From a virus (lineage: Duplodnaviria > Heunggongvirae > Uroviricota > Caudoviricetes), in IMG/VR virus record IMGVR_UViG_2740892234_000011: a stretch of 6,206 nucleotides of DNA; one strand, 5' to 3'. Shown here one piece after another: positions 2,320-6,206 of the stretch. A model generated the notes under the pieces. It was not told the origin of the DNA. It saw nothing but the letters and a program-made list of their open reading frames with translations, and made no database searches. The translations under genes and the position numbers were made by a program. The first letter of the stretch is position 1. The number at the start of each line of letters is the position of its first letter.

Positions 2320-2671
2320 CTTCTTTTCCTGCAACATCTCTCATCATAAGTGACCCAAATTCATCCAATCAGCACAAAAGAAACATTTAAAGCGTGAATG
2401 CTACCGAACGTTCATTTCAATTACATCGTTTTGATTTTTAACAGTTTTCACCTCAACAAATCAAATGGCATTAGCATTCATCATGGAAGAAAGACTGATA
2501 AAAATGATCATTTTCAATGACTTATGATCACACCGGGTATTGCCAAGTCATTCCTTTTACGCCAGGATACCCACAAGTGAGTAGTCGAGGAGAGTTTGCC
2601 AATTTTTGCGATATAAATTTCAATGTCCGAAGAACCATTAATTGTTAATTGATTCTGTATAAGGTATTAAC

Positions 2672-3769
2672 ATGACAATTTCATATATTCCTATTCTGAA
2701 AGCGAAACGTTCTGAGTTATCAGCTTTATCGCAGCTATCCATTGAAAAGAAATCAAAAATTTTGCCATTACTCGAAATTGAACCAGTGCCAATTGACCCT
2801 GATTCAGGTATTGCCTTAAAGAGTTATAACGAGACTCTTATAGAGTTCGGAAAGAAAGTCTCAAAATCTTGCTCAGATATGCAAGGTGTTTATATTGATG
2901 GATTATTAATTGAAGAGCATTTTATTTCTCCTGAAGATCATTACCCTATAATAAATGCGGTTAATCAAGTTAGAGATATGGGGATAAGAGTTATTCCTGT
3001 CAGTTCACCAACTCGCCCATCTAACTATAAAAGAGCGATTGATGAATTAATGCAGAATGAAATATGCTTGAGATTAACCACGTTAGATCTGGTTAACCCA
3101 CAATTAATAACGCATTACATTAATCATCTGGGAATTCCTTTATCAAATATTGATATAATTATTGACTTAAGAGATGAGTTAACCGAGGATAAAATTAATT
3201 CCGGCGAACTATATACTTTGGCAATGGGATTGATAAACAATCTGGCGCACCTCAATGAATACAGAAAAGTGATTCTTTCTGGGGGTTCATTTCCTACAGA
3301 TCTCAGTGATATTTCTGTTGGTCTATATTCTCAACCTCGAATCGAGTGGATTTTATGGCAGAGTTTAATGAATAGAAAAGAACTTGCCAGAAATGTGATT
3401 TATAGTGATTATGGAGTACAGCACCCCGACTTTAATAGGCTTTCGACGCGATTCCCTAGCGTATCTGCCAGCGTCAGATACTCTGGAGATAATGACTTTT
3501 GGGTATTTCGAGGAAGAGTAGCTAATCGCTTTGGTTATGAACAATATGGTAAACATAGTGAGGATATTCTTGCTCATCGAGAATATTCAGGGCCTACATT
3601 CTGTGCGGGAGATAGAGACATAGAATATTATGCAAACGAGTATCAAGCCTACAAAGCCAATCCCTCTGGTAACTATAAATTTGGTAGCCCAGAGGTATGG
3701 CGTAGGATTGGGCAAAACCATCACATAACTAAGGTTGTTGAGCAACTCGCCACTCTTTACGGGCTTTAA
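2672..3769 (+). CDS. Hypothetical protein, 365 aa, no family confidently assigned; candidate component of a two-gene defence module
   Basis: Single long ORF, ATG 2672 is the first start after an in-frame TAA at 2660-2662, stop TAA 3767-3769; AAGG 7 nt upstream. AT-rich codon usage unlike the flanking genes. Soluble-looking, only 3 Cys, no obvious Walker, HNH, HEPN or PD-(D/E)xK motif. N-terminus MTISYIPILKAKRSELSAL. Confidence 0.85.
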   Translation: MTISYIPILKAKRSELSALSQLSIEKKSKILPLLEIEPVPIDPDSGIALKSYNETLIEFGKKVSKSCSDMQGVYIDGLLIEEHFISPEDHYPIINAVNQVRDMGIRVIPVSSPTRPSNYKRAIDELMQNEICLRLTTLDLVNPQLITHYINHLGIPLSNIDIIIDLRDELTEDKINSGELYTLAMGLINNLAHLNEYRKVILSGGSFPTDLSDISVGLYSQPRIEWILWQSLMNRKELARNVIYSDYGVQHPDFNRLSTRFPSVSASVRYSGDNDFWVFRGRVANRFGYEQYGKHSEDILAHREYSGPTFCAGDRDIEYYANEYQAYKANPSGNYKFGSPEVWRRIGQNHHITKVVEQLATLYGL

Positions 3770-4307
3770 GTTTAACTCGAACAGCTTCACGAAGCTCGCC
3801 AACATCCATACTATTGGCGAGTTTTGACCATAAGACGCGTTTAGGTTTATTTTTCAAATTCTGTAGCTCCCCTACATCACTTAATAGGGAAAGCAATTCA
3901 TCTTTCCAAAGAAGCATTGTTAAGGAAAGTTTGTCCACTTGTGGATTCAACTTGCTAGTTCGAATTGTTTTTAAATGGATACCTTGCCGTGCACCTTGCG
4001 TAACTTGCTTTATCCCCCACCATGATGGAACTATGCTTAAAGCATCATAAAGATGGCAATCAGAGACAACCAAAGTTACTTTATCCATCACTGATGAGTA
4101 ATGTTGCACCTGCGCTGGTAATCTGAGCAAGTTATCACTCTTGCTCTTCAACTCATAACCATGTATAAGCCCATTGATCACTGCTATATCAGCTCTGCTA
4201 GCCCCTAGATTCATCGTAAACTCATCAATGATTAGGGTGTCAGGATCTTTATGATGATCTCTCAGAATCTTGGCATGCACAGCCTTTCTTACATCAATGT
4301 CTCTCAT
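3729..4307 (-). CDS. Hypothetical protein, 192 aa, with a PD-(D/E)xK nuclease-like signature; candidate effector of a two-gene defence module
   Basis: ATG 4305-4307 is the first start after an in-frame TGA; stop TAG 3729-3731. N-terminal region ...TLIIDEF TMNLGASRADIAVINGLIHGYELKSKSD gives E29, D40, E52-x-K54 in alternating hydrophobic strands, typical of the restriction-endonuclease fold. The C-terminal half looks helical. The 3' end overlaps the 365-aa CDS by 41 bp. Confidence 0.8.
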   Translation of the reverse strand: MRDIDVRKAVHAKILRDHHKDPDTLIIDEFTMNLGASRADIAVINGLIHGYELKSKSDNLLRLPAQVQHYSSVMDKVTLVVSDCHLYDALSIVPSWWGIKQVTQGARQGIHLKTIRTSKLNPQVDKLSLTMLLWKDELLSLLSDVGELQNLKNKPKRVLWSKLANSMDVGELREAVRVKLKARKEWRVAQQP

Positions 4308-4612
4308 ACCATAGTTGCGCTTTCATCGACTCTCTCAAGCCATGATTCTATATCATGGTTCGCATGAATGCCATTTGATATGACCAGTGGTTAAACATTG
4401 CACAGAAAAGTGGATGTGTATTTTAACAAAAGCAATGACGGCTAACCATGTTGGTATGTCGATAAAATGTTTCAACGTAAGCATTATCTGTTCCGCCCTT
4501 TCAGACGGTCTCCTGATGTTCTGAGGGTGCAGAATCCCTCCGGTTAAGGATTTAATAAAAATCGTTTCTGATTTAAATCTTCAGTATTTAGTTGTTAGTC
4601 GGTTTATAGCCT

Positions 4613-4924
4613 TTATGCTTCGGCCTTATTTCGCAACCAGACACAAACCGGGCCATCTTCCGTATCATGAATGGAACCAATAAACCAGCCATCGCCCTCT
4701 GGTCGTTCCGGTTCCCATGCAGAAATATCAGCATCACACGCATCAAGGTCAGCACATCCTTCATCTCTGAAGCAGAGGACGTATTGAAGATTATTTTCCT
4801 CCATCCAGGCGTTAAACTCTTCCGTTGAAATATATTCCCGACCGTCACAGAATTTTTCATATTCAGGATGCGTCCAGCAGCCATATTCATCACGTACTAC
4901 TGGTGTTTCTTTAATTTCATTCAT
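4613..4924 (-). CDS. Hypothetical acidic prophage protein, 103 aa
   Basis: MNEIKETPVVRDEYGCWTHPEYEKFCDGREYISTEEFNAWMEENNLQYVLCFRDEGCADLDACDADISAWEPERPEGDGWFIGSIHDTEDGPVCVWLRNKAEA. Its start overlaps the stop of the upstream gene (4917-4924), and GC content is typical of the prophage backbone. Confidence 0.7.
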   Translation of the reverse strand: MNEIKETPVVRDEYGCWTHPEYEKFCDGREYISTEEFNAWMEENNLQYVLCFRDEGCADLDACDADISAWEPERPEGDGWFIGSIHDTEDGPVCVWLRNKAEA

Positions 4925-5171
4925 TTCTGTTCTCCCACGTTTTCAGACTTTCACCACAGAACGGACAAAATGAAACCCGAACTGGTAATTTAGAAAATTC
5001 ACCGGAACGCAACATCACAAAATCAGGACCGCGAGTTAAACTCTCATTCCAGATTTTGTATATCAGCAGACCTTTTCGCATCGTGTATTCAGCATCATGC
5101 TCAAGGGACTTTGCCAGTGCTGCACATGGTTCTATCTTGTTGCCATTAACCTGGCATTTTGATTCACTCAC
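4917..5171 (-). CDS. Hypothetical small Cys-containing prophage protein, 84 aa, possible zinc-ribbon
   Basis: MSESKCQVNGNKIEPCAALAKS...VSFCPFCGESLKTWENRNE with Cys at 6, 16, 69 and 72 (CPFC). Its start overlaps the Ren-like stop by 4 nt. Confidence 0.65.
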   Translation of the reverse strand: MSESKCQVNGNKIEPCAALAKSLEHDAEYTMRKGLLIYKIWNESLTRGPDFVMLRSGEFSKLPVRVSFCPFCGESLKTWENRNE

Positions 5172-5590
5172 CGCACCACCTCCTCAAAATTCCCCTGATA
5201 AAACGCCAGTACGCGCTGCATAACTTCGCTCTTCCGGCACTCGAGACAGATTATGTTCAGACGCCTGTCGTAGCGGCGTATTTCGCCATCTGGTAATGAC
5301 CAGATAAGGTCCGGATCAACCGCAGATGGTTTCTTCAGCTTTGCCCTTGAGAGTTTTTTGCGGGCATTTTGCCAGTCTTTACGAGCCTGTTCAGACGGGA
5401 ATAACCCGTAGCCAGAATTGTATACATCGCCACTGGCAACCAGCTCTCTGGCCAGAACGCTCATCAGATATCTTGTTGCCCCAGTTTTAGTTTCCAGTTG
5501 TCGTAACGTCTCGCGCCCACTCTGGCGTACGAGTTCAACAACCTGCCCTTTAATTTTTTCCCGCTCTTCTTGTGTAAAAACTTTTGCCAC
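5168..5590 (-). CDS. Lambda Ren-like protein, 140 aa
   Basis: GTG start 5588-5590 with AGGAGG 4 nt upstream. The C-terminus CLECRKSEVMQRVLAFYQG resembles the lambda Ren C-terminus FKECRQSAAMKRVLAVYG as I recall it, and ETKTGATRY resembles Ren AALTGATV. Position downstream of replication genes matches lambda ren. Confidence 0.7.
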   Translation of the reverse strand: MAKVFTQEEREKIKGQVVELVRQSGRETLRQLETKTGATRYLMSVLARELVASGDVYNSGYGLFPSEQARKDWQNARKKLSRAKLKKPSAVDPDLIWSLPDGEIRRYDRRLNIICLECRKSEVMQRVLAFYQGNFEEVVR

Positions 5591-5737
5591 AAGCCCTCCT
5601 GAAAATTACCCCATGACCTGAAATCTGTTACCCTCTGAATCCCGGCGGAATTTCGGTGTCCGGTTCAGAAATATGATTAACACAACGCTGGTTGTTCGTG
5701 CCGCTTACCGGGAGCAACCAGGGGTTTNNNNNNNNNN

Positions 5738-5971
5738 CTCCTGCTCTCACGACAAATTATGTTCTGGTGCCTGTCGTAGCGGCGTATTTCGCCGTCTGGT
5801 AACGACCAGATAAGGTCCGGATCAACCACTGCAGGTTTCTTCAGCTTTGCCCTTGAGAGCTTTTTACGGGTATTTTGCCAGTCCTTACGCGCCTGTTCAG
5901 ACGGGAATAACCCGTAACCAGAGTTGTATACATCGCCACTGGCAACCAGCTCTCTGGCCAGAACGCTCATC
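5738..5971 (-). CDS. Partial CDS: internal fragment of a second, diverged Ren-like gene copy, bounded by N-gaps on both sides
   Basis: Translation MSVLARELVASGDVYNSGYGLFPSEQARKDWQNTRKKLSRAKLKKPAVVDPDLIWSLPDGEIRRYDRHQNIICRESR parallels residues 44-120 of the 5168..5590 product with several substitutions. Confidence 0.45.
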
Positions 5972-5981
5972 NNNNNNNNNN

Positions 5982-6206
5982 AGCCAGGTATCTTGTGTAA
6001 CGCCTCACACCATCCAGCATGGCCTCTGGTGGCACCCCCTCGCGTAATCTGGCCTTCCAGGCACTGAAAGCGGATTTCTTCGGGTTTGCCCCGGCTCGTA
6101 ACGGGTATTCCCGCCAGACCTGCTCGAACACATCCGGATAATCCACTCGTCCCACAGGCTGCCCGGTGTTTTCCGGGACTACCCGATCGGCTTCCCGCTG
6201 AATGGC
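5982..6206 (-). CDS. Partial CDS, truncated at both ends: prophage early-region protein, probably replication-associated
   Basis: Minus-strand frame open from the window end to the gap: AIQREADRVVPENTGQPVGRVDYPDVFEQVWREYPLRAGANPKKSAFSAWKARLREGVPPEAMLDGVRRYTRYLA. No family recognised with confidence. Confidence 0.45.

Follow-up and report, generated by a model that had tools for sequence, protein, structure and literature searches.

What is the AT-rich DNA that lies beside hok in this virus record, and what might it do for its carrier? The window that we analyzed, a stretch of 6,206 nucleotides (nt) from the IMG/VR record IMGVR_UViG_2740892234_000011, carries at this place a convergent pair of genes for proteins of 365 and 192 amino acids (aa), and the original prediction, made from the sequence alone, had put the pair forward as an uncharacterized phage-defense system. 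By homology, the insert at 2321–4492 belongs to the known gop-beta-cII/PD-lambda-2 kind, as a two-gene form that lacks gop, and it is very probably a conflict or defense module. Homology and context back the idea of a defense module, but not the idea that the system is unrecognizable.

The pair can be recognized because family profiles, RefSeq and the annotation of phage Rac-SA53 already name both proteins. The 365-aa protein, encoded on the plus strand at 2672–3769 and previously regarded as impossible to place, matches the Pfam family PF14350, ‘Beta protein’, over its full length (E = 3.8e-52, 178 bits against a cut-off of 27), and its best PADLOC model is PD-Lambda-2_C (1.8e-41, residues 4–362). 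The PADLOC ‘beta’ model matches residues 4–40 only (2e-4), so the window Beta belongs to a divergent subfamily; its alignment with the beta protein of the satellite phage P4 runs end to end at 23% identity. The 192-aa protein, encoded on the minus strand at 3729–4307, is a member of the sce7726 family (NCBIfam NF033832; 191.1 bits against a cut-off of 70, covering profile positions 1–183 of 184), matches the PADLOC ‘cll’ model (2.4e-28), carries the precomputed Pfam assignment PF26915, Phage_P4_cII, and is 28% identical to P4 cII (BLASTP E = 2e-17). RefSeq labels the pair ‘beta family protein’ and ‘sce7726 family protein’; of the 5426 E. coli genomes that are complete, 93 carry it, and these belong for the most part to Shiga-toxin-producing lineages. 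The depositors of phage Rac-SA53 called the two genes ‘beta’ and ‘CII phage-like protein’.

The window nuclease is a full-length sce7726 protein, but its partner is a PF14350 Beta and not sce7725. The sce7725 profile (NF033831) scores 12.3 bits against a cut-off of 60 on the window Beta, over the N-terminal 35 residues only, and just 5 of 29 diverse Beta proteins show even weak matches to it. Low-stringency Pfam and NCBIfam scans found no second family in these 29 proteins. Sequence searches of all Protein Data Bank chains with both proteins and their family profiles returned nothing usable, and the literature that we found on PF14350, sce7725 and sce7726 consists of incidental genome-annotation mentions.

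Two characterized systems have relatives of these proteins among their components. In P4, gop and beta are encoded on the plus strand, followed by cII on the minus strand, and together the three genes confer protection from lambda and P1 (Rousset et al., 2022, PMC9122126). Older work showed that gop is toxic without beta (cited in PMC9122126), and the phage accessory gene orf184 triggers gop-beta-cII toxicity (Silas et al., bioRxiv 10.1101/2023.04.06.535777); a 2024 survey still listed the system as of unknown function. Like gop-beta-cII (Rst_gop_beta_cll in DefenseFinder and PADLOC), the window locus joins a Beta-family gene and a cII-family nuclease gene in convergent orientation, at a variable cargo site on a mobile element. 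Unlike it, the window has no gop, which in P4 lies directly upstream of beta; its two genes overlap, whereas in P4 a gap of 27 nt, which holds an annotated terminator, lies between beta and cII; its nuclease lacks the C-terminal extension of ~70 aa found in P4 cII; and its carrier is a lambdoid prophage rather than a P4-like satellite. The earlier view that the pair is no named system therefore holds for the gop-less two-gene form, which is unnamed, but not for the proteins themselves, which are two of the three components of gop-beta-cII.

The absence of gop was borne out in several ways. The leader upstream of beta (2321–2671, plus strand) is non-coding and has no gop-like gene, with no same-strand open reading frame (ORF) of at least 50 aa within 400 nt upstream of beta, and a tblastn search of the window with P4 gop gave a best E value of 3.2. 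Nor is gop present in any of the 80 genome loci described below, the PADLOC gop model matching only P4 gop. We considered whether hok could act as a membrane toxin in the place of gop and rejected this, as hok/sok stands at the same position in prophages with unrelated cargo.

PD-lambda-2, the second relative, has three components, of which A is HigB-like, B is a toxic Xre-peptidase and C is beta-like; C is required for defense and dispensable for toxin neutralization (Vassallo et al., 2022, PMC9519451). The window Beta qualifies as a component C, but components A (HigB-like) and B (Xre-HTH/M78) are absent from the window, and homologs of A were found only in other loci. Moreover, PD-lambda-2 as published comprises three co-directional genes and no nuclease, in contrast to the convergent Beta and nuclease genes seen here.

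Is the pair, then, a unit in its own right? Scanning one genome per species yielded at least 450 cII-like relatives, and viral contigs at least 180 more, all retrieved through cII motifs; we analyzed the best 80 of the 450 genome loci, 73 of them distinct, together with 80 viral contigs. The genome loci span Proteobacteria, Acidobacteria, Firmicutes, Chloroflexi, Actinobacteria, candidate phyla and others. In 76 of the 80 genome loci, the cII-like gene was directly followed by a Beta-family gene, convergent every time, with two of the four exceptions falling at a contig end, and 79 of the 80 viral contigs likewise had a convergent beta next to the cII-like gene. The reverse search agreed: starting from divergent Beta proteins, a convergent PF26915 gene was found in four of four look-ups. 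The two genes are strongly linked.

The two proteins also diverge together, as their pairwise identities across 71 loci are correlated (Pearson 0.77, Mantel p 0.001). The nuclease is the more conserved partner in 98% of locus pairs, with a median identity of 42% versus 28% for Beta, a difference to which the use of cII motifs in finding the loci may have contributed. In one set of Enterobacterales loci (L015–L020), the nuclease is 53–57% identical to that of the window and Beta only 26–28%, a pattern that would follow either from exchange of beta or from its having diverged much faster than the nuclease.

The two genes are joined at their 3′ ends by more than proximity. The prediction of two long convergent ORFs sharing 41 base pairs (bp) agrees with the coordinates, and this 41-nt segment (3729–3769), which is coding on both strands, specifies Beta residues 353–365 and nuclease residues 180–192, among them the invariant R183 and the conserved W186. 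Stop-end overlaps of 11 to 167 nt occur in 70 of the 73 distinct genome loci and in 78 of the 80 viral loci, and every one of these lengths is 2 modulo 3. Measured between the first bases of the codons for Beta H351 and nuclease W186, the spacing is exactly 30 nt in 57 of the 73 loci, and most of the other measurable spacings (33, 54, 69 and 186 nt) equal 30 plus a multiple of three. The codon phase of the overlap is unchanged across phyla, in ~150 loci, and it follows from this constancy that the overlap is ancestral and dual-coding; the constant spacing and phase further imply that the C-terminal helices of both proteins are encoded on opposite strands of one homologous segment.

What surrounds the pair differs among loci. 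Upstream of beta and on the same strand, 13 loci have a PD-lambda-2B-type Xre/M78 gene, accompanied in five of them by a HigB-type PD-lambda-2A gene; one locus has an FRG/PDC-S15 protein, P4 has gop, and the Enterobacterales clade that includes the window has nothing. When PD-lambda-2B homologs were scanned instead, the majority lacked beta, and of the eight that had it, four also had cII, two ended at a contig end and two were clearly without cII. There is accordingly an asymmetry in the partnership: cII is almost never seen apart from beta, but beta can be found beside other partners and sometimes lacks cII. This asymmetry fits a shared regulator with exchangeable effectors and is the main reason for which we would assign the role of sensor/regulator to Beta and that of effector to the nuclease. 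Taken together, these comparisons suggest that the conserved cross-phylum unit is the convergent beta-cII pair, to which gop and the HigB/Xre-peptidase genes are variable additions.

Viewed from the other side, natural PD-lambda-2-type operons, made up of genes for a HigB-like protein, an Xre/M78 peptidase and Beta, often have past their end a convergent gene for a cII-like nuclease that overlaps beta (L023, L041, L045, L047, L050, L055, L061, L062, L077, L079, L080, L083, L085, L088 and L090), and two viral contigs (L179 and L182) carry the three PD-lambda-2-type genes with no cII-like gene. From the published clone coordinates we had also considered that PD-lambda-2 was cloned with a truncated cII; we withdrew this suggestion as unproven, and natural operons without cII exist.

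We next turn to what each protein might do. Residues E29, D40, E52 and K54 of the nuclease are the same in all of 28 family members, P4 cII among them, a QxxxY motif is invariant across phyla, and the fold modeled by AlphaFold is restriction-endonuclease-like, with the D...(D/E)xK residues placed in the canonical strands of the alpha/beta core. The PD-(D/E)xK signature that had been read from the sequence is upheld by these residues and by the model, and the predicted structure marks the 192-aa protein as a nuclease-fold protein with E52 and K54 as catalytic candidates. Its nuclease domain is RecB/MmcB-like and is followed by a helical domain at the C terminus, for which a weak SAP-like structural match was seen. 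Compared with RecB, Cas4 and MmcB nucleases, it lacks a Cas4-type cysteine cluster, and it has two features peculiar to its own family, the helical domain and an obligate Beta partner.

Beta is predicted to form a (beta/alpha)8 TIM barrel that is extended by helices at the C terminus. Its conserved polar residues lie at or directly past the predicted strands of the barrel region, and its structural matches are generic TIM barrels. Beta looks like an enzyme, a TIM barrel with a conserved pocket. A pair of this composition could be read as restriction-modification (R-M)-like, with Beta acting as a TGT/DpdA-style TIM-barrel modifier that marks self DNA or RNA and the nuclease cutting unmarked incoming DNA. 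Type II R-M pairs can likewise consist of two convergent genes, one of them PD-(D/E)xK, on mobile DNA. However, the partner in the window is not a recognizable methyltransferase, PF14350 being the only family in Pfam and NCBIfam that Beta matches, and a conserved overlap that codes on both strands, like that of beta-cII, is not known to us from any R-M family. We regard the R-M-like reading as unlikely.

The same enzyme-like pocket raises the question of whether the roles are reversed, such that Beta would be the catalytic effector, acting on a nucleotide, a cofactor or a nucleic acid, and the cII-like protein a DNA-sensing or regulatory partner. Beta is common to all the variants and is required for PD-lambda-2 defense, the SAP-like match, weak as it is, lies in the nuclease’s own C-terminal domain, and P4 cII owes its name to a regulatory (clear-plaque) phenotype. 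Yet a catalytic tetrad and a QxxxY motif that are invariant across phyla argue for catalysis and not for binding alone, and Beta evolves much faster than the nuclease, as is usual for sensors. We give this reversal a slim chance.

If the pair serves conflict, its genomic setting should be informative. The module lies in a Rac/Qin-type lambdoid prophage, between replication/nin-type genes and hokD-Q. Homology of the flanks with other E. coli prophages ends at ~2296–2320 and restarts at ~4493, and the AT-rich insert in between (2321–4492) extends from the hok promoter to the 3′ flank of the 103-aa gene. In O157:H7 strain 8368 the same slot holds DUF551 and DUF4014 genes, and in K-12 Qin it holds flxA-ydfV-relB-relE beside hokD; with common flanks and differing cargo, the site is a variable cargo slot, as the K-12 arrangement had led the original prediction to propose. 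The composition of the region is foreign as well, with a GC content of 37.9% across 2320–4612 (33 to 42% in sliding windows) against 50.2% at 1–2319 and 49.6% at 4613–6206, so that the predicted contrast is real and the by-eye estimate of mid-30s was slightly low. Only two long ORFs are listed in 2320–4612, the remainder being of at most 78 aa.

Elsewhere, the immediate neighbors of the pair include integrases and phage lysis and primase genes, and defense genes are numerous among them (MzaA, KwaB, dCTPase, dGTPase, BrxH, DrmD, PbeA and methyltransferases), a context consistent with defense; the pair also adjoins conjugation genes. A second two-gene variant was seen in E. coli between the Rz lysis gene and the terminase gene Nu1 of a lambdoid prophage (L091 3134–4763, L092 and L093). 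It consists of a 206-aa nuclease, 54% identical to that of the window, and a 355-aa Beta, with an overlap of 59 nt, and it accounts for 29 of the 80 analyzed viral contigs. In phage Rac-SA53 (10154–10919), an IS1 lies ~166 bp upstream of the nuclease start, between the module and a rac22 homolog, and may disturb the upstream region of the module.

These settings bear on whether the module instead serves the prophage’s own life cycle, in recombination, replication or lysogeny control, and not conflict. Its place in the early-right region, where recombination genes and nin-type genes (rusA, for example) are close by, would suit such a function, and a homolog in the Gordonia phage Powerball is annotated ‘exonuclease’. 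Against this, the pair is present in only the 93 E. coli genomes mentioned above and sister prophages fill the slot with unrelated cargo, its composition is foreign, and it recurs in a different prophage slot, by conjugation genes, in defense islands and in P4’s known defense hotspot. A life-cycle role is, in our view, very improbable.

Our best explanation, in which we place moderate confidence, is that the window carries a horizontally acquired, gop-less beta-cII core with an anti-phage function, in which the nuclease is the effector and Beta the sensor/regulator. Such a module would protect the lysogen against other phages, through abortive infection or direct attack on DNA. The nuclease would execute the response, and Beta, evolving fast, would hold it inactive until a phage cue is perceived. 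The convergent 3′ overlap would keep the two genes inseparable, and antisense transcription may couple their expression. The analysis establishes the family identity and folds of the proteins, the conserved catalytic residues, the linkage of the genes, their conserved overlap and the setting in mobile elements and defense islands; defense by the two-gene form, the assignment of effector and sensor and any regulatory role of the overlap are what we infer.

Several points weigh against this explanation. We did not find a published two-gene beta-cII system in the literature searched, PADLOC modeling the individual proteins, nor a report of a defense role for cII in the literature found, and the toxin demonstrated in P4 is gop and not cII. 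Genes for cII-like proteins without beta exist in Myxococcus phage Mx4 and Xenorhabdus koppenhoeferi, and the nuclease alone is therefore not necessarily lethal. Part of the gap in conservation between Beta and the nuclease may stem from how the loci were ascertained, and a conserved-pocket TIM barrel that resembles an enzyme does not fit a simple antitoxin. Finally, the promoter and terminator assignments given below are made at the level of consensus sequences. The X. koppenhoeferi locus (6001–7810) has its own arrangement, in which the cII-like gene is followed by co-directional ORFs for a protein-kinase-like protein (165 aa) and a PP2C-phosphatase-like protein (241 aa), and may represent a partner replacement.

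Some of these points bear equally on another proposal, that the pair is purely an addiction (toxin-antitoxin) cassette in which the nuclease is the toxin, Beta is the antitoxin and the benefit is stabilization of the prophage with no anti-phage role. The module adjoins another addiction locus, hok/sok, Beta is the reported antidote to gop in P4, and the two genes are tightly interlocked. Both characterized relatives protect against phage, however, and the neighbors in other loci are often defense systems; it would be unusual for an antitoxin to be an enzyme-like TIM barrel of 365 aa, and the existence of cII-like genes without beta is likewise at odds with addiction. We consider a pure addiction role improbable and retain the anti-phage explanation.

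Building on the anti-phage explanation, we tentatively entertain a broader possibility: that beta-cII is an ancient, self-sufficient two-component immune core across phyla, made up of an enzymatic TIM-barrel sensor and a RecB-like nuclease, of which gop-beta-cII and many PD-lambda-2-type loci would be elaborations with extra toxins. In this scenario, the overlap would be a functional device for mutual control at the transcriptional or RNA level rather than a frozen accident. The substrate of Beta could be a nucleotide or nucleic-acid species, and an action of Beta on such a substrate, if true, would represent a new enzymatic sensing logic in phage defense.

The locus matters in part because gop-beta-cII and PD-lambda-2 have one component in common, Beta, whose mechanism is unsolved. 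The window offers the simplest natural context of Beta, with a cII-like nuclease as its only companion, and since there is no additional toxin, it provides a clean start for asking what Beta senses or catalyzes and whether the nuclease is the executioner. Should the two-gene form defend, a widespread system has probably been missed by current defense-annotation tools. Four comparative findings go beyond the literature that we found: the pair is interlocked across phyla, its overlap is phase-locked, the toxin genes upstream of it vary, and cII lies beside many PD-lambda-2-type operons. These findings make the locus a minimal model for the beta-cII family.

How might the two genes be controlled? 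A terminator-like hairpin (3790–3826, plus strand), with a stem of 13 bp and a U tract along its 3′ arm, lies 20–57 nt beyond the beta stop and within the nuclease coding region. As RNA it folds at –18.4 kcal/mol (z = –3.45 versus shuffled sequences), and it could terminate the beta transcript within the nuclease gene, a putative role suggested by its sequence. On the other strand, a promoter-like site of the form ATGGCA-18-TAGAAT (4345–4374, minus strand) is the putative promoter of the nuclease gene and overlaps a conserved extended –10 element, TGnTATA, at 4355–4349, of which TG-TATA is invariant across seven aligned Enterobacterales upstream regions. No conserved promoter or operator was found upstream of beta, where the region is not conserved among relatives. 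Antisense transcription arising from the overlap may be regulatory. Between the extended –10 and the nuclease start (4308–4340, minus strand), the window is ~27 nt shorter than the six other Enterobacterales, and the 5′ leader of its nuclease mRNA would consequently be shorter.

At each of the two prophage sites in E. coli, the surrounding phage operon runs in the direction of the nuclease gene and against that of beta. With these orientations, lytic read-through from phage promoters would raise transcription of the nuclease gene and oppose that of beta; the pattern rests on two cases and could be due to chance.

Both borders given for the cargo by the original prediction were present, namely a hok promoter-like site at 2319–2291 on the minus strand (TTGGCA-17-TAGAAT) and the 103-aa ORF (4613–4924, minus strand), whose stop lies at 4613. 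The hok coding sequence matches Pfam HOK_GEF (3e-23) and sok its Rfam family (8e-25). Six runs of exactly ten Ns occur in the window, at 426–435, 870–879, 1447–1456, 2154–2163, 5728–5737 and 5972–5981. As one contiguous stretch, the region of interest matches the chromosome of E. coli 2013C-3264 at 100% identity, and because of this identity the runs elsewhere in the window have no effect on it. Near-duplicate segments flank each run (for example, 2080–2153 and 2164–2240), and DUF977-like ORFs are near-duplicated across one (5168–5590 and 5677–5970), so that the window looks like concatenated alternative assembly paths and not like a single, genuinely contiguous molecule. In the window, hok and beta are ~91 nt farther apart than in the matching complete genome. 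A weak match to an isrK-like small RNA at 1348–1429 on the minus strand (27 bits versus an Rfam gathering score of 50, E = 0.008) adjoins a GC-rich hairpin, and a near-copy lies at ~1785–1866, duplicated across an N-run.

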